Part shown: in pieces, positions 1,845 to 42,720 of the stretch
Numbering within the stretch: the stretch's first letter is position 1
Layout: each line of letters begins with the position of its first letter
The notes under the pieces: model-generated
Databases searched by the model: none
What the model was told of the DNA's origin: nothing
Seen by the model: only the letters and a program-made list of their open reading frames with translations
Virus record (IMG/VR): IMGVR_UViG_3300035698_021428
DNA length: 49,956 bases
Source of the DNA: a virus
Strand: one strand, 5' to 3'
Made by a program: the position numbers and the translations under genes

Positions 1845-2036
1845 ATGGCAATCAATGATATTAAGAAACTAGGAGATCAGCTAGCAGGGCTCAAGACTCC
1901 TCAGGAAGCTCGTCAAGTTGGGCAGTCGCTTGATGCTGCTCTCAATGGACAAGAACCGCCAACAGCAGGAGAAGCCATTACAAAGGATCCTGCGCCAACT
2001 CAGCCGCCTTTATCAGCGGCAGCACGCCATCAGTGA
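1845..2036 (+). CDS. hypothetical protein (63 aa), weak call
   Basis: ORF track only. No clear RBS. The 3' end overlaps the tRNA at 2025. Confidence 0.3.
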   Translation: MAINDIKKLGDQLAGLKTPQEARQVGQSLDAALNGQEPPTAGEAITKDPAPTQPPLSAAARHQ

Positions 2037-2113
2037 GCGGCAGGACGCTCACCAGCCTCCTAAGCTGGCTCCTTCGAGAGAAGGTTTCTAGGTTCGAATC
2101 CTAGTGATGGCGC
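2025..2113 (+). tRNA. non-canonical long-variable-arm tRNA; hand-read anticodon CCU (2059-2061); an 8-bp acceptor / 5-bp T stem (tRNA-Sec-like fold) is possible
   Basis: Acceptor cgccatca/tgatggcg. D stem gagcg/cgctc. Anticodon arm ccagc-ctCCTaa-gctgg. The 19-nt variable arm has stem ccttc/gaagg and a GAGA loop. T arm is ctagg-ttcgaat-cctag. Confidence 0.6.
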
Positions 2114-2130
2114 TTTGACTAACAGATATT

Positions 2131-5115
2131 TTATGCTTCTCTTGCGGCTAAATATATTTTGTTATCTGCAAGTTGAACAAAAGTTAGCGGCATTCCGCCT
2201 AAAGCGGCTTCATAATACGCAACTGGAGTGCCTGTAACTTGCGTAAAAATAAGTTGGTTGTTTGCATTTACTGATAATGGAACTCCATTCCATGTAGTAG
2301 AATATGCAACTTGCGTTAAATAATTTCCAAGATCTTGTTCTTCAGTTATTGGCATATATCTTCTATTTTGGCTATCTATATATGTAGCAAATCGAGTGCC
2401 TTTATAAACAAAAGTTTGCGAATGTAGGTTTGCTGATTGGTTTTCAACCCAAACTCCAAGAGAGTTTTGACCAAGAGAATTTGTAAAATAAGTTGATGAT
2501 ATTCCTCCTAGAGAGACTACTCCTCCTGTTTCTGTAAAATCAGTTGAATAAACTACATTGAGACTATGGTCTTCGCTACTATTGGCAACTATAGCAATAG
2601 GATTTCCTCCTATTCTAACTGCATGATTTGCCATAATAGTAAAATTACTTACTGTAGAAGCAGCGGGCGGTAATGGCGTTGTTATCTCTTCAGGAACAAT
2701 TAGTATGGCAGCAGCCTTTGTTCCTGCTGGTTGACCGAATATAGTAGAAAATGGATCTTGTCCGCCGCTGCCGCCTTCGCCTGCTCCGACAGCGCTCGTT
2801 GCTCCTACATGAATATATCCAGCAGGCCAAGATCCATTAATAATACCTTCTATGTTTTGGCTTCCGCTAATTAAGCCAGTTAATATCAATGCTCGGCCTC
2901 TCGGCGGCGTAGAAACAGAAACTAATCGTCTTCCTGCTGCGGCAGTTACGCTAATAGTGCTTGCAACAGAAACAGTATCATCGACATCTATTTTCCAAAC
3001 ACCGACACCTGCAAAGAGAGTTGTTGCGCTCATTGTTACTATAAGATCCCCAGTAGAAGATGCTTGGACTTTATACCATTGAGTATGAAATCGATTAGAT
3101 GCTGAACTCGCATTGTCATCAGCAAGCTCTATAGTATCAAGATCGATTTCTCCGCCTGTTGGGGTTGTGTCATATACGGTACCTGCAACATCTAAAGTAA
3201 TAACATCTTTAAGCGTTCCGTCATTCATGACAGATATAACGCCAACAATATATTCACCTGTTGCAGCAAAAGCATTTGAAATTGTTTTTGTTGTAAAGTT
3301 GACAGTAGAAGCTTCAAATGCTTTGAATGCTGTTTCTGAACCATGATCAGAATAAACGTTTCTATCTACAGAAGAAGTGTTGGTAAGAGTTGCGCTCTCA
3401 GCAGTTGAATCTATTGTGAAATCATATTCTTGACTTGGATCAATCCCGCTAAAAGATGTTCCAAAACGAGCATTATTTGCCCTGGAAAGAGCTTGAGACT
3501 GAGTTAGCTCTGTTCCGTCCCATATAGCAATTCTGTTTACCTGGCAAGGCGCAGAATCATCATAATTTGTGCCATCGAAACGAACGCCTGAGGTTGTTAT
3601 TTTTGAATTTCCTGTACCGCCATAACTGTCTGCTGTCTTTGTTCCTAATCCTCCGAGCACAACTTCGTACTGAAAATCTTTAACAAGTTTACCATTTATA
3701 TAGATAAGCCAATGGCCATTGCCATCATGTGTTAATAAAATATGATATTCTTTTCCTGGCATAAGAGGTATGCCAGAGTTGAGATTATAGCTATTGATAC
3801 TTCCGCCTGTTCTCTCGATGGAAAGATAATTAAATTGCATACATCTCAGAACTAGGCCTTTCCAACCGTTAGCATCTGGATCTACTGTTGCAATATATAA
3901 ACCTCCATTGAATTCATTTGCTACAGCAAGACCAGTTGGAGGAACTTGGGGGTCGCCTTCTCCTAGAAGAAGCAAAGGATGAAGGATGCCCTCGCTATTG
4001 CCATCTACAATTCCATCTGTATCGAGAGGATATCTAGGGATGCCATACCATTCCATTGTTGATGGGCCAGCGTCTATAGAGTTATTTGCAAGAACAATTC
4101 GACCATCAGAGTTATTTAGCTTAACAGCTTTTGTATTTCCTTGAGCTAAATTTTCTTCTTCTTGTCCTGATAATTCAGAAAAAACTAAGGCATAATAGTT
4201 TCTTCCTGAAATATTGTAATCGCTATTAACAGTTATACCAGAAGCAGAAATGCCTACTATTTGACTATCTGTTTTTATAACGAGAGTCCCCCCTCCATCG
4301 TCATCAAGTATCTTGTAGTTATTTGAAAGCATGTCTTTTGTAATAAAAGCATGCGGCTCAATATTTAGGTTTCCTGCTGTATTGGGACCATCTATAATAA
4401 AAGCGGCAGAGCCATTTGTTGCTATAGAAATAACTCTTCCGTTTGAACCATCGCCTGTCCATGAAACAACTTCAAAATCACTTACAGGAGACTGCGTTGT
4501 AAAGAAAGCTAAAGCTTCTATACCTTCACCTAGAGATATGCCGTTATTTTGATTAACCTCAACATCACCTGTTAAAGTAATAGTTCCGTTTCCCAAAGCA
4601 GAAATACGGGCAGCAATGCCTCCTCCATAATCCATATGGATGTTATTTGGCATTGCCTGCGCATAAACAATGGCAGGCTGACTGCTATCCCTCTTTACAA
4701 AAACAGCTTGAGGAGTTGCGTTCTCATTACTGAAAGAGATAGTTCTGTCTGCTGTAGCGTTGCCTATCCAGGAGGTCTCTCTGAACATTCCGGAGCCATT
4801 ATCTTTTATGGCAAGATAATAATAAGCTATTCCGTCTACATTCGCATTTTCTGAAGCTCTGAATCCTTTTCCGTTGAATGGGTCAAAAACATGTCCGCCT
4901 AAAGGACCAATAGCCTCTTCGGAAGGACTAGCATCGAATCTTTGCGATCGACCATGCCATGAAATATTCGTTTTCCAAATAACTGGCAAATCACTAGCTG
5001 GAGCTATGATAACTAAATCAGGTTCAAAATCAAGATTGATAGCAAGCGATTCAGAGGAAACACCAGTATTACGAGATCCAGTATATGTTCCGACAGCAAT
5101 TAGGGGGGATGGCAT
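2131..5115 (-). CDS. large LamG/concanavalin-A-like lectin domain protein, probable fibre or receptor-binding protein (994 aa)
   Basis: Uninterrupted 994-aa ORF. LamG-type segment 'KEYHILLTHDGNGHWLIYINGKLVKDF'. Gly/Ser/Thr/Asn-rich beta-rich composition typical of phage fibres. Confidence 0.75.
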   Translation of the reverse strand: MPSPLIAVGTYTGSRNTGVSSESLAINLDFEPDLVIIAPASDLPVIWKTNISWHGRSQRFDASPSEEAIGPLGGHVFDPFNGKGFRASENANVDGIAYYYLAIKDNGSGMFRETSWIGNATADRTISFSNENATPQAVFVKRDSSQPAIVYAQAMPNNIHMDYGGGIAARISALGNGTITLTGDVEVNQNNGISLGEGIEALAFFTTQSPVSDFEVVSWTGDGSNGRVISIATNGSAAFIIDGPNTAGNLNIEPHAFITKDMLSNNYKILDDDGGGTLVIKTDSQIVGISASGITVNSDYNISGRNYYALVFSELSGQEEENLAQGNTKAVKLNNSDGRIVLANNSIDAGPSTMEWYGIPRYPLDTDGIVDGNSEGILHPLLLLGEGDPQVPPTGLAVANEFNGGLYIATVDPDANGWKGLVLRCMQFNYLSIERTGGSINSYNLNSGIPLMPGKEYHILLTHDGNGHWLIYINGKLVKDFQYEVVLGGLGTKTADSYGGTGNSKITTSGVRFDGTNYDDSAPCQVNRIAIWDGTELTQSQALSRANNARFGTSFSGIDPSQEYDFTIDSTAESATLTNTSSVDRNVYSDHGSETAFKAFEASTVNFTTKTISNAFAATGEYIVGVISVMNDGTLKDVITLDVAGTVYDTTPTGGEIDLDTIELADDNASSASNRFHTQWYKVQASSTGDLIVTMSATTLFAGVGVWKIDVDDTVSVASTISVTAAAGRRLVSVSTPPRGRALILTGLISGSQNIEGIINGSWPAGYIHVGATSAVGAGEGGSGGQDPFSTIFGQPAGTKAAAILIVPEEITTPLPPAASTVSNFTIMANHAVRIGGNPIAIVANSSEDHSLNVVYSTDFTETGGVVSLGGISSTYFTNSLGQNSLGVWVENQSANLHSQTFVYKGTRFATYIDSQNRRYMPITEEQDLGNYLTQVAYSTTWNGVPLSVNANNQLIFTQVTGTPVAYYEAALGGMPLTFVQLADNKIYLAAREA

Positions 5116-6679: not shown

Positions 6680-6762
6680 GCTGATGTGAGCCGAATTGGT
6701 AAGGCAGCACTCTTGTAAAGTGCCGAGGAAACTCACTGCAGGTTCGAGTCCTGTCATCAGCT
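6680..6762 (+). tRNA. long-variable-arm (class II-like) tRNA; hand-read anticodon UGU (6714-6716)
   Basis: Perfect acceptor gctgatg/catcagc. Leu/Tyr-like D loop gaattggtaa. Anticodon arm gcact-ctTGTaa-agtgc. The 14-nt variable arm has stem gag/ctc and a GAAA loop. T arm gcagg-ttcgagt-cctgt. Confidence 0.6.
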
Positions 6763-6768
6763 TTCAAA

Positions 6769-7005
6769 CGAGAAGGAGAACAGCCAACCCATCGCTCTAC
6801 CCGTCACTGTTTCCATACGGATGAGAGGAAGGTCAGGACTGCACTTCGCAAAAACTCAGGAGGCCGTAAAATAGCCGTTCGAACTGGGGAGGCAGCAACC
6901 TCAAACAAGCCTAGCGTGGGCGAAGCGCTATAATGGTTGGGTTGGGGGCCACAAGATAAATGATGGGATAGAACAGGATCCTGCCTACGGGCACTTTCCT
7001 TCTCG
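6769..7005 (+). ncRNA. rnpB: RNase P RNA, bacterial type-A-like but compact (~237 nt)
   Basis: CR-I-like 'GAGGAAGGUCAGGAC' at 6825-6839 (E. coli: GAGGAAAGUCCGGGC). 'AGAUAAAUGAU' at 6954-6964 (E. coli: AGAUGAAUGAC). 'AUAGAAC..UCCUGCCUAC' at 6968-6988 (E. coli: ACAGAACCCGGCUUAU). The P4 helix 6830-6838/6979-6986 has bulged U6833 and three compensatory changes. The P1 helix is 6769-6779/6995-7005. No credible ORF. Confidence 0.8.
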
Positions 7006-7452: not shown

Positions 7453-7553
7453 GTCTGCGTAGCTCAACGATAGAGCGCCCAACCTGCGATACAGTGTGCC
7501 CTTGGGAGACTGTCAGCTATGGGATGTTGCTGGTTCGAATCCAGTCGCAGACT
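7453..7553 (+). tRNA. tRNA-like gene (101 nt) with normal acceptor, D and T arms but a ~46-nt irregular anticodon region; anticodon not assignable by eye
   Basis: Acceptor gtctgcg/cgcagac. Arg-like D arm gtagctcaacgatagagc. T arm gctgg-ttcgaat-ccagt. Between them, cccaa...(a/t)tggg encloses the hairpin acagt-gtgcccttgggag-actgt. Confidence 0.5.
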
Positions 7554-11158: not shown

Positions 11159-11241
11159 GGTGGCTATGGCAGATTGGTAATGCACCTGGTTGTGGACCAG
11201 GAACCGTAAGGTTTATGCGGGTTCAAATCCCGTTAGTCACC
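11159..11241 (+). tRNA. tRNA-His (GUG) with encoded G-1 and an unusual 15-nt variable arm
   Basis: 5' g-gtggcta resembles E. coli tRNA-His GGUGGCUA. Anticodon arm cctgg-ttGTGga-ccagg. Variable arm aacc-gtaa-ggtt-tat. T arm gcggg-ttcaaat-cccgt. C73. Confidence 0.7.
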
Positions 11242-11249
11242 CTTTAGTT

Positions 11250-13070: not shown

Positions 13071-13279
13071 CTGAAAATGAGTTAAAATACGGCAAAAAAT
13101 TAAACAGACTTCTTCATAAAAAAGCAATGGGATATGAGGGCTCTATGATTTTTTCTGAAGGAGTATTATACGGATGGAAGAATGCAGGTTTAATAACTGC
13201 TGCTGAAAGCAGTAGGCTTGTCAAGGCATTTTGTACTGAAAATGATGAAATCGATATGACTTACGAATATGGAAGATAA
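13067..13279 (+). CDS. hypothetical protein (70 aa)
   Basis: ATGA-coupled to the HNH gene. The last 9 nt overlap the tRNA-Ser 5' end. Confidence 0.5.
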   Translation: MTENELKYGKKLNRLLHKKAMGYEGSMIFSEGVLYGWKNAGLITAAESSRLVKAFCTENDEIDMTYEYGR

Positions 13280-13355
13280 TCCCGAACGGTGACGGGCACT
13301 ACTTGGAAAGTAGTTGGAGGTTAATAGCCTTGCGGTTCGATCCCGCTGTCTTCCT
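13271..13355 (+). tRNA. tRNA-Ser (GGA), long variable arm, best folded as 8-bp acceptor / 4-bp T stem
   Basis: Acceptor ggaagata/tgtcttcc. D stem cccg/cggg. Anticodon arm actac-ttGGAaa-gtagt. Variable arm tggaggttaatagcctt. T arm gcgg-ttcgatc-ccgc. Confidence 0.8.
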
Positions 13356-14065: not shown

Positions 14066-14149
14066 GGAAGAGCTTCCGATGGAGCGGTAGTTTGTTTTGA
14101 AAACAAATGTGGTGTAAAAGCCTTGCAGGTTCGAGTCCTGTCTCATCCG
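14066..14149 (+). tRNA. tRNA-Ser (UGA), long variable arm, 7/5 fold with one A-A acceptor mismatch
   Basis: Acceptor ggaagag/ctcatcc. Anticodon arm tttgt-ttTGAaa-acaaa. T arm gcagg-ttcgagt-cctgt. Discriminator G. Confidence 0.7.
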
Positions 14150-17214: not shown

Positions 17215-17299
17215 GGAAGATAACCCCAAACGGCGACGGGCAATGTTTCGAAAACATTTGGAGGTTAATAGCCTTGCGGTTCGATCCCGCTGTCTTCCT
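17215..17299 (+). tRNA. tRNA-Ser (CGA), paralog of the 13271 tRNA (same acceptor, variable and T arms)
   Basis: Acceptor ggaagata/tgtcttcc. Anticodon arm aatgt-ttCGAaa-acatt. Variable arm tggaggttaatagcctt. T arm gcgg-ttcgatc-ccgc. Confidence 0.8.
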
Positions 17300-23436: not shown

Positions 23437-26127
23437 ATGCAAGACAATGATTCCGGCGCAATCCGAGGATCATCAGGCGATCTTTTGATCCCTGAAGGTT
23501 CATATGCTCATTTTTAAGGACTAACAACTGGCGCAATTTCGACCAAGGTTGGGCCTGCAAGCGTTTCGCAATCGGGGCAAGAACGTCCTGTTGCGTTCGA
23601 TCCAGCAAGGCGACAATTCATTGAAGTTAGCCGAGAAAGTTCGGTCAAACTCAATGTTATCGCTGATGAAACCAGTTATGTTATTCTTTCAAATCCGTGC
23701 ATTGCAGTCGCAGACGGCGATGACCAGCTTATTTTTCCAGGATCTTCGGACAAGATTCCCAATCAAGGTCTAGAGAGCGGTCGAAAAGTTGTGGTTCATG
23801 GACCTGTCGAATTTTCGCTTTGGCCTGGACAGACTGCAGAAGTTGTCCCGGGTCATGCTCTTCGCTCAAATGAATATCTTGAACTTGTTGTTTATGATGC
23901 TGATGAAGCAAAAGCCAACTGGGAATCAGCCTCCGTTGTTGAGACCAAGAAAACTGGCGGCGATAAAGAAGATAAAGATGATACGCAGGTTACGTCTACT
24001 GCCCCTGCTGATCTTCTTATGGGACAACGATTGGTTGTCAAGGGAACTGAGGTTTCATTCTATCGTCCTCCAACTGGTATACAGGTTGTTCAGAACGAAG
24101 ACAATATCTTTATTCGACAAGCTGTTTCCCTTGAATTACTTGAATACTGTATTCTTATCGACGAAAATGGCAACAAAAGGTATGAGAAGGGACCAGCAGT
24201 TGTTCTTCCTCGTCCATCTGAACGATTTGAAAAAAGCTCTAGAGGCAATAGAAAATTTAGAGCCATTGAGCTTCAAGACCAGGCAGGCGTTCATATCAAA
24301 GCGCTCAAGACCTACCAGGATGACGACGGAAAAGATCGCAAAGCTGGTGATGAATTCTTCTTGACGGGCAAAGATCGTCCTATCTACTACCCTCGCGAAG
24401 AAGAAGCCGTTATTCCTTATAGCGATGGCGAAAAGATTCACTTCGCTGTTGCGGTTCCCAAGGGGGAAGGCCGCTACGTTATGAATAAGACCACCGGTGA
24501 GATCGCAACGATCATCGGCCCCAAGATGCTTCTTTGCGATCCGACTAATGAAGTCATCGTTCGTCGCATCCTTACTGACAGACAAAGTAATGATTGGTAT
24601 CCTGGTAATGATAACTCTAGGCAATACAATCGCAATCTTCGAGAGATTCAGGAAGCTGCAGGAACGGCTGGTGATTTTGTTGACGATACATCAACACGGC
24701 AGGCAGCAACCAGGGGGCTTCATTCGCTGCGAGAAAAAGGCAATCCAAGAGTAGGCGGAGCTTCGTTCTCAAGTATGTCCGCTTCCGCCGGATCGGAACG
24801 AGGTTTTGAAAGCTTCGAACAAGCTGGTTCAGCAATGATGGGAGAACTAGATCGGCCATCAAGCTATACAGAACCCAAAAGCATTACTCTTGATACACGT
24901 TTTGCAGGAGTTCCTGGTATTGAGCTTTGGACAGGCTACACCGTTATGGTCGTTGACAGAGAAGGAAACCGCCGAATCGTCAGCGGTCCAACCAATATTC
25001 TGCTCAATTATGACGAGTCATTAGAAATCATAGAACTTTCTACCGGCAAACCAAAATCAACAAAAGGATTGATTCGCACAGTATATCTTCGCAGAGATAA
25101 TAATAAGGTTTCCGATTATGTTGAAGTTGAGACAAAAGACCATGTGAAAGTACAAGTAAAACTGTCATTCCTGGTCAATTTTGTTGAAGACAATCCTAAT
25201 GACGATCAGGATGATACCGATTATCAAGAGCGTTGGTTTGCTAGCGAAAACTATGTCAAGCTTCTTTGCGATCATGTTCGCTCGATTCTTAAGGGCGAAG
25301 CTAAAAAGCACGATATCAATAACTTTTATATCAACTCAACATCTATCATCAGAGATATCATTCTTGGTAATCGTCAGGAAGATGGCAGAACAGGTATGTT
25401 CTTTGAACATAATGGTATGCATGTTATCGATGTTGAGGTTCTTGGAACAGAAATTCTTGATCACAGCATTGCTTCGCTACTTACTGGCTCTCAGCGAGAA
25501 GCAGTTGAATCAAGTATTCGTCTTCAGTCTGCCGAAAGAACGCTTAATGTAACTGAGCAAATGGAAGCGATGTCTCGTAAAGAAGCAGTTGCTAAGAATG
25601 AGACCAAGAAGCACGCACACGATCTAACGATAGAAAGCATTGGAAGAACTCTGAAGGAGTCCCTAGCAGACATATCTTCAGAACAAGACAAGTCCGTTCA
25701 TAGGCTTACTGCTCGTACTGCCGAAGCTGAAGCTACTAAAATGGCAAACGTTATTGAGGCCGAAGCTGCGGTCGCAGGAAGCGAGATTGAGCGAGAAGAT
25801 CAGAAACTCGATCATGAACAGAAAATCTTAGAAGCAGAAGAAATAGCTAGGCTTGACAAGGAAGCGATTGAAACCGAAGTCAAGGCCACAGTTGATAAGC
25901 TCAAGGCCCTTGAAGGTTCGGGGTTGACCGACGTTCTTGCTACGCTTGGTCGAGAAGACTTCTTGACCCGTATAGCTGAATCCAGCAATCTTGAACGATT
26001 GATTGGCGGAGCTAGCGTCCAAGATACTTTGACCGGAATTTTCGGCGTTGAGTCGCCTATTGCTAAGGCGTTCGTTGCTATCAAGGCAGGAAAGCCGCTT
26101 GCTCAATCTTTGCTCAATAGCGACTAG
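23437..26127 (+). CDS. major vault protein (MVP) homolog: vault repeats, SPFH-like shoulder and cap-helix (~896 codons) with one in-frame TAA at 23515-23517
   Basis: GGAGA RBS plus ATG 23437. 'LLIPEGSYAHF*GLTTGAISTKVGP..ERPVAF' vs human MVP '[25 protein letters not shown]..ERVLF'. 'GDEFFLTGKDRPIYYPREEEAVI' vs '[21 protein letters not shown]'. 'YVMNKTTGEIATIIGPKMLL' vs '[20 protein letters not shown]'. E/A/K-rich C-terminal helix. The track ORF 23791 starts at an internal GTG. Confidence 0.8.
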
Positions 26128-26302: not shown

Positions 26303-26655
26303 GGGGGCGATATGGAATCGCTTCAGTAGGGTAGGAAGGATTGTTGCGAGCCGGGGAACCATGCTTAGGCCCCGTAAAAAAGTATGGAATAATTAGTTGC
26401 CAACAGCAACCCACTCCGCATCGCTGCTTGACAGCGGTGCCTGCAAGTCCTGAACGCCGATACGGGATACGCAGAAGATTTTCGGCTGGTCGTCTGAACA
26501 ACTGTTTCAACCAACAGACGATGAGATAAAGGATGAGACCGCTCCCTGTCGCAGACTGTCGCTGGTCGGCTAGGGGCTAAGATAAAACATCGACTACGCT
26601 CGTAGAAACGCCCAACAAACTACTGAACACGGCGGTTCGAATCCGCCCGCCTCCA
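26303..26655 (+). ncRNA. ssrA: tmRNA (SsrA), tag ANSNPLRIAA
   Basis: 5' GGGGGCGAUAUGGAAUCGC.. pairs with 3' ..GGCGGUUCGAAUCCGCCCGCCUCCA (G3:U70, T arm). The tag ORF GCC AAC AGC AAC CCA CTC CGC ATC GCT GCT TGA lies at 26399-26431. Confidence 0.85.
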
Positions 26656-26664
26656 TTTAGAAAG

Positions 26665-31079: not shown

Positions 31080-32729
31080 ATGGCAACCAAACTTGGAAAA
31101 GGCGAGTATCCCAGCGATCATTCGCCAGAAGACTTTAAATGCTTTGGCCCTCCTGCTCAGGAAGACGGTCAGTTTGACGGCATGATGATGGCTGACATGG
31201 GCTGCTTCAAGCAAGATGGTACAGATTCCAACAAATTCTACCATGGCGCAGTTGTTCAATCCAAAAAAGATGATAGCTGGTATGCCTACTATGAATGGGG
31301 CAGAACTGGGAAAGGTTCTTCTGATAAGCAATTCGTTTGTTGTTCGTCGAAAGAAGAAGCTGAACAAGTATTCTGCAAGCAGATGCACTCCAAAAATGAC
31401 AAGCGAGGCGAATGGGTCAAGATAGGCAGTAAAGACATTCTAAGAGCGAAGACAGGCAAAGACTGCTACCTTATCCGTCCGCTCGCAAAGCGATCTCATG
31501 GCCTTCCAGACGCTCAGACAATCGTCCATGACGATAGCGGCAAAGCTGGCAGCGCCGTCGCTAAGAAAACAACCAAAAAGACCGGAAAGAAAACCAGCAA
31601 AAAGATTGCTAAGAAAAAATCAAACGTTGATCCAAAGACTCTTAGTCTTATGAAGGATATGAACGTTGCAGCGGTTGAATTTACTCGCTCGCAGGTTGAT
31701 AGCGATGCAGTCCCAACTCAAGGCGTTATCGATGAAGGCAGAGATGTTCTTATCGAAGCGGAAAAAAGAGTTAAGAAAATTGGATCAAAGCTTGAAGAAC
31801 AAATTAGCGATAGAGACCTTCGAGATCTAACGTATCATCTCTATTCTCGAATCGGGAAGCCAAAGCCTCTCAATACGCTTGAATCTGCCTGGATTCTTTC
31901 TCAAGACAACATCATGCGTTGGCGAATGGACCTTGATACATTTGAGCAGGCATTATATGCTCTTGACCTAGGCATTGGCAGCGATACTCAGAATACCTTT
32001 GATCCGTTCAATGGCATGAATATTGAGATGATTCATCTCGACCCGACTAAAACGGCTGAAGGTCAATTTATTCACAATTGGATGCCTGGCGCAACGAAAA
32101 ACGTCCACGGGCACGTTGGCGACATGAGTATTGTCAACGCATGGGGCGTTCGTCAAACTGATTTTGCACCAAAATTTGAAGCAACTGCTGCAAAGATTGG
32201 TAATCGCAATTTCACCCCATCTGACAAACCTATCAAGCAGCCCCGAAAACGATCTGATATCTCGCCAGAAATGGCTAAACTATTCGATCAAGCAAATGTC
32301 AATCTCTTATTCCATGGAACAAGATCTGTCAATGTTCCTGGCATTCTTCGCACAGGGCTAAGGCTCCCCAGAGAGCTTGTTGGAGTTGTCCTTACTGGCG
32401 CAATGTTTGGACCCGGTATCTATTGGGCCGATGATTGGAAAAAATCAGACGGTTACACTTCTCGACCAGGAACTTATTGGTCAAGAGGCGGGGGACAGGT
32501 CAAAGGTCGCAAGGCTTTTATGTTTGTTGCCAATGTTGCTCTTGGCAATCCTCATATTGCTCGCGGTCCTCAAGGATATACTGCTCCGCCGAAAGGTTGC
32601 GATTGTGTTGCAGGTCTTGCTAATAAGAGCAGCGTAGCCAACAACGAATGGATTGTTTACGACAGTATGCAAAATTCTCTTACATATCTTATTGAATACG
32701 AAGTTTCAGGCAGCAGCCGTCGCTGGTAA
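31080..32729 (+). CDS. poly(ADP-ribose) polymerase-like protein: WGR, Lys-rich linker, helical regulatory domain and PARP catalytic domain (549 aa)
   Basis: WGR 'FYHGAVVQSKKDDSWYAYYEWGRTGKG'. Linker 'AKKTTKKTGKKTSKKIAKKKS'. Catalytic H-Y-E triad: 'LLFHGTRSVNVPGIL', 'FGPGIYWADDW' and 'NNEWIVYDSMQNSLTYLIEYEV' (PARP1: '[22 protein letters not shown]'). Confidence 0.9.
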   Translation: MATKLGKGEYPSDHSPEDFKCFGPPAQEDGQFDGMMMADMGCFKQDGTDSNKFYHGAVVQSKKDDSWYAYYEWGRTGKGSSDKQFVCCSSKEEAEQVFCKQMHSKNDKRGEWVKIGSKDILRAKTGKDCYLIRPLAKRSHGLPDAQTIVHDDSGKAGSAVAKKTTKKTGKKTSKKIAKKKSNVDPKTLSLMKDMNVAAVEFTRSQVDSDAVPTQGVIDEGRDVLIEAEKRVKKIGSKLEEQISDRDLRDLTYHLYSRIGKPKPLNTLESAWILSQDNIMRWRMDLDTFEQALYALDLGIGSDTQNTFDPFNGMNIEMIHLDPTKTAEGQFIHNWMPGATKNVHGHVGDMSIVNAWGVRQTDFAPKFEATAAKIGNRNFTPSDKPIKQPRKRSDISPEMAKLFDQANVNLLFHGTRSVNVPGILRTGLRLPRELVGVVLTGAMFGPGIYWADDWKKSDGYTSRPGTYWSRGGGQVKGRKAFMFVANVALGNPHIARGPQGYTAPPKGCDCVAGLANKSSVANNEWIVYDSMQNSLTYLIEYEVSGSSRRW

Positions 32730-42648: not shown

Positions 42649-42720
42649 GCTTCGTTAGCTCAATGGTAGAGCAATAGTTTCTAAAACTACAGGTTGTCGG
42701 TTCGAGTCCGACACGAGGCA
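42649..42720 (+). tRNA. suppressor tRNA, anticodon CUA (reads UAG); body resembles tRNA-Lys
   Basis: Acceptor gcttcgt/acgaggc. D arm gctc-aatggta-gagc. Anticodon arm atagt-ttCTAaa-actac (anticodon 42681-42683, A27-C43 mismatch). T arm gtcgg-ttcgagt-ccgac. A73. Confidence 0.75.

Follow-up and report, generated by a model that had tools for sequence, protein, structure and literature searches.

The stretch of DNA analysed here (the window: 49,956 nucleotides, IMG/VR virus record IMGVR_UViG_3300035698_021428) comes from a large phage and represents 50 kb of a probably much larger genome. This text deals with one of its tRNA genes, which carries the anticodon CCU and is called tRNA(CCU) below. 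In a census of the window by ARAGORN, which returned 12 tRNAs and a transfer-messenger RNA (tmRNA), this gene was the first to be called, as an 88-nt tRNA-Arg(cct) at 2026-2113 on the + strand. The gene and its parts are as follows.

2025-2113, + strand: whole tRNA(CCU) gene, starting at G2026 if the acceptor and T stems have 7 and 5 bp (7/5 register) or at C2025 if they have 8 and 5 (8/5); from ARAGORN, covariance models and minimum free energy (MFE) folding
2025-2032, + strand: 5' strand of the acceptor, CGCCAUCA, in which C2025 is position -1 in the 7/5 register; from the sequence
2033-2034, + strand: linker G2033 U2034, positions 8-9, without the canonical U8; from the sequence
2035-2050, + strand: D arm, with a 5-bp stem (GAGCG 2035-2039/CGCUC 2046-2050) and a 6-nt loop, GCAGGA; from the sequence
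2052-2068, + strand: anticodon arm, CCAGC 2052-2056/GCUGG 2064-2068, with the loop CUCCUAA 2057-2063; from the sequence, ARAGORN and the Rfam alignment
2069-2087, + strand: variable region of 19 nt, composed of CU, a hairpin and UUU; from the sequence and the ARAGORN drawing
2088-2104, + strand: T arm, with a 5-bp stem (CUAGG 2088-2092/CCUAG 2100-2104) and the 7-nt consensus loop UUCGAAU; from the sequence and ARAGORN
2105-2113, + strand: 3' strand of the acceptor, UGAUGGC, followed by G2112 and C2113; from the sequence

The gene is real and intact. Its stems contain no mismatch, and all of the 27-28 base pairs are Watson-Crick. Eight of these can be formed in the acceptor helix CGCCAUCA/UGAUGGCG, where C2025-A2032 pair with U2105-G2112, and seven of them, starting at G2026, appear in the ARAGORN drawing. 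In the D loop, G2043 and G2044 correspond to G18 G19 and A2045 to A20, while a G14:C21 pair in the core lengthens the D stem to 5 bp; A2051 stands between the D and anticodon arms. The hairpin of the variable region consists of 5 bp (CCUUC 2071-2075/GAAGG 2080-2084) capped by a GAGA tetraloop. No CCA is encoded, TTT follows directly at the 3' side, and the G+C content of the gene is 58%, compared to 41% for the window. The original prediction for this locus had derived such a fold by hand, and it matches the sequence base for base, in a gene that ARAGORN also calls. The anticodon that it had read, CCU, was likewise obtained at C2059 C2060 U2061, from position 34 on, by ARAGORN, and the same loop is found in the Rfam alignment to tRNA-Sec, the selenocysteine tRNA.

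Single-sequence MFE folding of tRNA(CCU) gave -41.2 kcal/mol (z = -4.18), and none of 200 shuffled sequences was as stable. The fold of minimum energy itself contained a 7-bp D stem that includes the GU linker, and was set aside as sterically implausible for an L-shaped tRNA. The best Rfam match was the tRNA-Sec model RF01852, with 37.6 bits (E = 4e-6; gathering score 47), in an alignment that adopts the 8-bp acceptor register and recovers the CCU anticodon. As the three genuine tRNA-Ser genes of the window score alike on this model (37.9, 37.3 and 31.6 bits), the match to tRNA-Sec is not diagnostic.

Arginine determinants, AGG codons and related phage tRNAs

The sequence of tRNA(CCU) was compared with bacterial identity sets (PMC9976931), with positions given in 7/5 numbering, for the aminoacyl-tRNA synthetases of arginine (ArgRS), leucine (LeuRS) and serine (SerRS).

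ArgRS: A20, C35, U/G36, A/G73, G2-C71 and C3-G70; tRNA(CCU) has all except G2-C71
LeuRS: A73; absent from tRNA(CCU), which has G, or C in the 8/5 register
SerRS: G73, C72, G2-C71, R4-Y69, C11-G24, a large arm and G30-C40; tRNA(CCU) has 5 of the 7, without G2-C71 and C11-G24

A20 is the main determinant of bacterial ArgRS, which at position 73 uses A or G and accepts U73 too (PMC9976931). In ordinary phage tRNAs an A follows the D-loop GG in 31 of 37 Arg tRNAs (84%) and in 21 of 311 non-Arg tRNAs (7%). In tRNA(CCU), C2-G71 and A11-U24 take the place of the SerRS pairs G2-C71 and C11-G24, alongside G1-C72, A4-U69, G30-C40 and G73 (7/5 numbering). Arg identity is well supported by these determinants, as far as sequence can tell, and we infer that the tRNA is charged with Arg. 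Leu identity is excluded because LeuRS needs A73, so that charging with Leu, to which the original prediction had pointed, has to be abandoned.

That prediction had also relied on the rule that long variable arms are confined in bacteria to Leu, Ser, Tyr and Sec tRNAs. The rule fails in phages, and two further tRNAs of this window depart from it.

6680-6762, + strand: tRNA-Thr(UGU), 83 nt, with a variable-arm hairpin
11160-11242, + strand: tRNA-His(GUG), 83 nt, with a variable-arm hairpin

The extra hairpins of these two tRNAs are capped by GAAA or GUAA. The Thr tRNA retains the Thr set (G1-C72, C2-G71, G35, U36) and the His tRNA retains the His set (G-1:C73, GUG). Since both keep their own identity sets, an extra arm alone is no mark of Ser identity. 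We also considered GNRA loops as a feature separating inserted arms from genuine Ser arms, and dropped them because E. coli tRNA-Ser has GAAA-capped arms as well. The genuine Ser tRNAs of the window are the following.

13271-13355: tRNA-Ser(GGA), 8/4 acceptor/T composition, U73, with a GGAAGAUA... scaffold
17215-17299, + strand: tRNA-Ser(CGA), 8/4, U73, with a GGAAGAUA... scaffold, detected by RF01852 (31.6 bits) and by model R1, described below
14066-14149: tRNA-Ser(UGA), GGAAGAG..., related to Ser(GGA) and Ser(CGA)

Ser(CGA), which was overlooked by ARAGORN, differs from Ser(GGA) in the anticodon arm and has the scaffold in common with it. The scaffold of tRNA(CCU) resembles none of the three.

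The meaning of AGG was examined in genes of the window, where this codon is not rare and accounts for 100 of 14,398 codons (6.9 per 1000; AGA, 19.4 per 1000). Fifteen AGG sites could be aligned with homologues, in a lysyl-tRNA synthetase (LysRS), a PAS histidine kinase and a major vault protein (MVP) homologue. The LysRS gene is the immediate neighbour of tRNA(CCU).

649-1803, + strand: compact class II LysRS of 384 aa, 220 nt upstream of tRNA(CCU)

All three AGG codons of the LysRS gene (122, 216 and 308) lie at Arg columns, with this residue in 118, 120 and 120 of 120 homologues, respectively. One of the three falls within a conserved RNEG stretch, presumably at the motif-2 arginine of class II synthetases. 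The histidine kinase has seven AGG sites; the plurality residue was Arg at four of them and K, Q and E/R at the others, and at no site was it Ser or Leu. In the MVP homologue Arg was the plurality at 3 of 5 sites, with one K/R and one Leu. When the 15 sites were pooled, homologues had R at 43%, S at 2.5% and L at 5.5%. AGA sites in the same comparison gave R 45%, S 4% and L 3%, with a similar profile for CGN, while S was found at 8-25% for Ser codons and L at 41-58% for Leu codons. Judged by these alignments, AGG is an Arg codon within the window. The original prediction had proposed insertion of Ser or Leu at AGG, naming a survey of this codon as the check that could speak against it; that survey, carried out on three genes of the window, returned Arg with a profile like that of AGA and CGN, and recoding by tRNA(CCU) is unsupported because the AGG sites align with Arg. 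Under the standard code 11 open reading frames (ORFs) cover 86% of the window, and as no single stop-to-sense change raises this coverage, no stop-codon recoding is visible there either. Since the window is part of a probably much larger genome, there may be further AGG readers, synthetases or recoded regions beyond its ends.

Comparable tRNAs were found in other viral contigs by scanning IMG/VR for CUCCUAA followed, 20-40 nt on, by a T loop. Among the 120 matches listed, to which the following counts refer, there are at least ~18 genuine tRNA(CCU) of 85-99 nt with a variable-arm hairpin, which fall into at least 8 sequence lineages. At none of the loci of long CCU tRNAs was there a second CCU tRNA of normal length, and at 7 loci the long CCU tRNA adjoins other Arg tRNAs. 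In contig L129, which has a near-complete set of 37 tRNAs, the long CCU tRNA is the sole AGG reader and stands in a block ordered Ser(GCU)-CCU-Arg(UCU)-Lys-Arg(CCG)-Arg(ACG). An A follows the D-loop GG in 12 of 14 long CCU tRNAs, and their alignment contains compensatory changes at 17 of 23 cloverleaf pairs, extra hairpin included. Extra-arm Lys, Gly, Cys, Asn, Thr, His and Trp tRNAs are bystanders in the same contigs. An origin of the long CCU tRNAs as recent copies of Ser(GCU) with one anticodon mutation was rejected, the identity being only at background level (56-60% to the Ser(GCU) of the same locus in L003 and L080; not among the top matches in L129). By sequence and context, the long CCU tRNAs of other phages appear to behave as an Arg isoacceptor. 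A limited literature search yielded no description of a class of phage tRNA(CCU) with a variable-arm hairpin.

Ten long-variable-arm CCU tRNAs of other phages, with the window excluded, were used to build a covariance model, R1. This model matched tRNA(CCU) over its full length with 55.7 bits (E = 5.5e-15). The extra-arm tRNAs of the window scored 58.2 bits (Thr(UGU)) and 41.5 bits (His(GUG)), its canonical tRNAs 26-42 bits, and its Ser tRNAs 24.3 bits (UGA) and 20.1 bits (8/4 CGA), with no match for the 8/4 GGA.

The acceptor of tRNA(CCU) can be read in two registers, in which the discriminator is either G2112, as G73 (7/5), or C2113 (8/5). An eighth pair, C2025:G2112, is possible from the sequence; by chance, a -1:73 pair is expected in 1/4 to 1/3 of genes, and of the other long CCU tRNAs some have such a pair and some do not. 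None of the 13 listed tRNA genes of the window encodes CCA, and in all 13 the acceptor helix ends in one unpaired base with TT or TTT directly behind it. An extra C ahead of the T run is found only in His (g-1:C73) and tRNA(CCU) (c-1:G73), and if these two are read with 8 pairs, U or A precedes the first paired base in every tRNA gene of the window. The spacing of the T run and the upstream U or A thus favour an 8-bp helix in tRNA(CCU), and such flanking regularities suggest a shared processing signal. Against this, a 13-bp acceptor branch is to our knowledge otherwise specific to tRNA-Sec, and the irregular Ser tRNAs of this very phage stay at 12 bp (8/4).

Probable decoding of AGG as arginine and its alternatives

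We read tRNA(CCU) as a phage tRNA-Arg(CCU) that decodes AGG as Arg and has acquired an unusual body: its variable region carries a hairpin, and its D arm is compact and resembles that of tRNA-Sec. The probability of this reading is, in our estimate, about 0.62. ArgRS is a class I synthetase, and since enzymes of this class leave the variable region of the bound tRNA exposed to solvent, an extra arm on a tRNA-Arg would be tolerable. As to the route of expression and processing, we infer that the gene would be transcribed without an encoded CCA, that its 5' end would be cleaved by RNase P, possibly with the phage's own miniature RNase P RNA (6770-7003), and that its 3' end would be trimmed at the T-rich trailer before CCA is added. 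The ArgRS of the host or of the phage would then charge it through A20, C35, U36 and G73, and the product would supply AGG decoding to a phage with 6.9 AGG per 1000 codons.

Several observations weigh against this interpretation. The tRNA lacks U8, A14 and A21, and the general tRNA model RF00005 gave no match reaching the gathering score at this locus. Model R1 mainly detects tRNAs with a short extra hairpin and is not specific for Arg or CCU, as Thr(UGU) obtains the top score. Crude isotype hidden Markov models built from ~300 phage tRNAs left the body of tRNA(CCU) unassigned, with Tyr, Trp, Gln and Arg on top within 1-3 bits of one another. The argument from A20 is weakened by the presence of A after GG in 6 of 30 phage Ser tRNAs, and the partial SerRS set, together with a 5-bp arm of tRNA-Ser size, makes some serylation possible. 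Moreover, an 8-bp acceptor would entail a discriminator C, which is not among the Arg determinants, and a branch of 13 bp, which EF-Tu substrates do not usually have. Finally, no orthologue of this tRNA(CCU) was found in any collection searched. Scanning viral contigs with its exact 3' half and anticodon arm revealed none, and the contigs of four of the closest LysRS relatives from the protein collection carry no tRNA. Looking in viral contigs for relatives of the 994-aa protein encoded on its other side led to no orthologue either. A scan of genome contigs gave one archaeal match only, a first metagenome scan gave nothing, and a second one gave 33 archaeal tRNA-Arg(CCU), most of them with the canonical anticodon-loop intron, plus one non-tRNA match, all irrelevant here.

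The alternative that fares best, though we think it improbable, is that tRNA(CCU) takes no part in elongation and acts as a decoy or sponge for a modification enzyme or for a tRNA-targeting nuclease of the host, as a processing signal of the LysRS transcript, or as a tRNA whose 8/5 branch EF-Tu rejects. The failure of the general covariance model, the missing U8, A14 and A21, the possible 8-bp acceptor and the lack of an orthologue all speak for it, as does the overlap of the gene with the stop codon of an ORF at 1846-2035. Phage tRNAs are, in addition, known counter-measures to tRNA-cleaving defence systems. CUA suppressors derived from allo-tRNA(UAU), of the allo-tRNAs compared below, were inactive in E. 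coli (PMC5389517). On the other side, all that translation requires of a tRNA is intact here: the stems are free of mismatches, G18 G19 and U33 are in place, the T loop follows the consensus, the anticodon loop has 7 nt and includes A37, and the branch has 12 bp in the 7/5 register. AGG is also used at an ordinary frequency, and the class is conserved, with covariation, in other phages, where it fills the CCU slot of Arg tRNA blocks.

Slightly less probable still is a missense tRNA similar to the allo-tRNAs, which would cause low-level statistical mistranslation or damage host proteins. Its long arm has the size of that of tRNA-Ser, SerRS ignores the anticodon, the Sec/allo-like D arm is combined with a GU linker, and the score on the Sec model equals that of the real Ser tRNAs of the window. 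The two CUA suppressor tRNAs in the window imply, furthermore, that this phage tampers with decoding. Five of seven bacterial Ser determinants are present (PMC9976931), and allo-tRNAs reading AGA or AGG do exist (PMC5389517). Nevertheless, the missing pairs G2-C71 and C11-G24, the lack of any relation to the phage's Ser scaffolds and a 5-bp T stem that conforms neither to 8/4 nor to 9/3 argue against Ser identity, which by the same logic would have to extend to mis-serylation of the extra-arm Thr and His tRNAs. AGG occupies invariant catalytic Arg positions of the phage LysRS and looks like Arg over the 15 sites, so that efficient insertion of Ser would harm the phage proteome, with its ~100 AGG codons in the 50-kb window. 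Comparable CCU tRNAs elsewhere, for their part, act as an Arg isoacceptor.

A decaying, functionless pseudogene would agree with a score below threshold on both Rfam models and with a singleton in the collections searched; however, all 27-28 pairs are Watson-Crick, the loop motifs are intact, the G+C content is 17 points above the surroundings and the departures in the core are coordinated (the G14:C21 pair), unlike random decay, and we regard this explanation as very unlikely. The least likely of all, that tRNA(CCU) is the partner of the adjacent 384-aa LysRS, charged with Lys and reading AGG as Lys, draws on the position of the LysRS gene (649-1803, directly adjacent on the same strand), on the divergent short clade of this enzyme (366-405 aa) and on the conservative nature of an Arg-to-Lys change, partly hidden in alignments (K 11.7% at AGG vs 9.4% at AGA), but is opposed by C34, C35 and G73 where bacterial LysRS reads U34, U35, U36 and A73, by strictly Arg LysRS sites with K in at most 1 of 120 homologues, and by the contigs of four members of the LysRS clade, which have no tRNA near the LysRS gene.

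Whether the hairpins serve a purpose is a separate matter from the decoding of AGG as Arg. That variable-arm hairpins on class I tRNAs (Arg-CCU here; Thr, His, Lys, Gly, Cys and Asn in other phages) represent a deliberate phage architecture, so far undescribed, and are not neutral insertions, seems to us unlikely. It is conceivable that the hairpin makes phage tRNAs resistant to tRNA-targeting defence nucleases, or distinguishable by them from host tRNAs; alternatively, it could serve the phage's own maturation machinery, including an RNase P RNA without specificity domain. A sharper variant, also conceivable, is a tRNA(CCU) with an 8-bp acceptor and a dual Arg/Ser identity.

If tRNA(CCU) is indeed an Arg tRNA, phages break the rule that reserves long variable arms for the tRNAs of Leu, Ser, Tyr and Sec, and annotation or genetic-code screens that deduce identity from architecture would take such genes for pseudogenes or recoding devices. 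In that case an Arg tRNA whose arm is class II-like and whose core is Sec-like is probably acceptable to ArgRS, EF-Tu and the ribosome, which is relevant to tRNA engineering. With its irregular tRNAs, amber suppressors, tmRNA, LysRS and miniature RNase P RNA, this genome constitutes a good system for the study of virus-owned tRNA biology.

Miniature RNase P RNA and other genes of the window

Within the tRNA cluster, an Rfam scan revealed a further RNA.

6770-7003, + strand: miniature RNase P RNA of bacterial type, ~230 nt, within the tRNA cluster

The match to the class A model RF00010 (6775-7003) has 49.9 bits (E ~1e-13; gathering score 100), and its 229 nt span all 367 model positions. The RNA has a P1 helix, CR-I (GAGAGGAAGGUCAGGAC), CR-IV, CR-V and a P4 that keeps its bulged U, while almost nothing is left of the specificity domain. 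Thirteen clear homologues (L170-L181, L026), representing 12 distinct sequences, were found by a motif scan of IMG/VR. They lie on contigs of 29-476 kb, save for one on a 5.8-kb fragment, and mostly inside tRNA arrays, and the variable P4 position covaries across them (A-U, G-C, C-G). On sequence grounds these RNAs seem to form a family of miniature RNase P RNAs encoded by phages, which may bear on the maturation of the irregular tRNAs of the phage. In the literature searched, no link was found between RNase P RNA and huge or jumbo phages.

Further tRNAs and a tmRNA lie elsewhere in the window.

7453-7553, + strand: tRNA of 101 nt, 46.9 bits on RF00005, not called by ARAGORN
42649-42720 and 45505-45577, + strand: two well-formed CUA amber-suppressor tRNAs, 68.6 and 63.9 bits on the tRNA model
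26303-26658, + strand: tmRNA, 129.6 bits in Rfam, with the tag peptide ANSNPLRIAA

The 101-nt tRNA contains ~29 extra nt in the region of the anticodon loop, far below the size of a group I intron. Despite the CUA tRNAs, TAG is the stop codon of 17 of 71 ORFs, and nothing in the window points to a recoding of TAG.

The genes flanking tRNA(CCU) were also compared with their relatives, and two of the many accessory genes of the window are listed with them.

1846-2035, + strand: 63-codon ORF rich in Ala, Pro and Gln, running from just past LysRS into tRNA(CCU)
2131-5115, - strand: gene of a 994-aa protein, adjoining tRNA(CCU)
23791-26127, + strand: near full-length MVP homologue
31080-32729, + strand: protein with WGR and PARP catalytic domains, ~5 kb downstream of the MVP homologue

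The LysRS belongs to a small, divergent clade of 366-405 aa (a typical LysRS has ~500 aa) found only in metagenomic phage-like contigs, which are rich in ORFans and in one case carry a Cas cluster. We considered whether this gene is split by a recoded stop and rejected the idea: the gap contains both TAG and TGA, and stop-to-sense changes bring no gain in coverage. DNA similarity to the closest relatives, L123 and L124 (~75% nucleotide identity), ends at the LysRS stop codon, and no tRNA was found near the LysRS gene in the contigs of four close relatives. The TGA stop of the 63-codon ORF overlaps positions 8-10 of tRNA(CCU), and no similarity was found between this ORF and the sequence downstream of LysRS in the closest relatives. 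On phage contigs, homologues of the 994-aa protein are flanked either by terminase and portal genes or by genes for capsid and adaptor/tail proteins. The MVP homologue is 37-52% identical to proteins of ~650-980 aa, with 537 matches in the protein collection at E < 1e-30. Its pairing with a PARP protein recalls the eukaryotic vault components MVP and vPARP, and is unexpected in a phage. A megablast search of the window against GenBank phages and plasmids gave no match.

Comparison with known systems

The original prediction had likened the fold to tRNA-Sec and to the allo-tRNAs, and both likenesses hold in part. Like bacterial tRNA-Sec, tRNA(CCU) has a GU linker, an extended D stem, a long arm and a possible 8-bp acceptor combined with a 5-bp T stem. 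The linker and the D arm support the resemblance, whereas the RF01852 score lacks specificity. In contrast to tRNA-Sec, the anticodon is CCU and not UCA, the D arm has 5 bp and a 6-nt loop instead of 6 bp and a 4-nt loop, the discriminator in the 8/5 register is C and not G, and the score of 37.6 bits does not reach the gathering score (47). Nor did the window show any Sec machinery. Because anticodon, D arm, score and discriminator all differ, tRNA(CCU) is not a tRNA-Sec.

What defines allo-tRNAs is a 12-bp branch divided 8/4 or 9/3 between acceptor and T stem; in addition, their variable arm is long, their D arm resembles that of tRNA-Sec in its long stem and tetraloop, and position 73 is G or U. 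Those of the 9/3 type include readers of AGA and AGG (PMC5389517). Variants of allo-tRNA(UAU) turned into CUA suppressors gave no suppression in E. coli, and most allo-tRNA(UAU) may go unused in translation (PMC5389517). With these molecules tRNA(CCU) shares the long arm, the GU linker, a non-Ser anticodon and a match to the Sec model. Its compact D arm is Sec-like in the 5-bp stem but has a 6-nt loop and no tetraloop, and its discriminator is G73 in the 7/5 register but C in the 8/5 register. The composition that defines the group is missing: with a T stem of 5 bp, tRNA(CCU) folds as 7/5 or 8/5 and is therefore no allo-tRNA. It differs as well in the presence of Arg determinants and in the use of AGG for Arg in the window.

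The nev-tRNAs of nematodes, which derive from tRNA-Leu and are charged with Leu (PMC3333845), also combine a variable arm with the anticodon of a class I amino acid, but tRNA(CCU) has no A73 and its codon AGG aligns with Arg. Irregular 8/4 Ser and His tRNAs have already been reported in phage tRNA clusters (PMC5389517). The window likewise mixes canonical and irregular tRNAs, with its 8/4 Ser(GGA) and Ser(CGA), yet the reported irregular phage tRNAs keep their cognate architecture, whereas here a class I isoacceptor has a class II-like arm.

With canonical tRNA-Arg(CCU), such as E. coli argW, tRNA(CCU) has in common the CUCCUAA loop, A20 after G18 G19, C35/U36, a purine at 73 and a 7/5 branch (both in that register), and a consensus T loop. 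It departs from that type in a variable region of 19 nt with a 5-bp hairpin instead of ~5 nt, in G8 U9 instead of U8 N9, in a G14:C21 pair instead of A14/A21, and in falling below the RF00005 threshold. Taken together, these comparisons place tRNA(CCU) as a structural variant, a class I isoacceptor bearing a class II-like arm.

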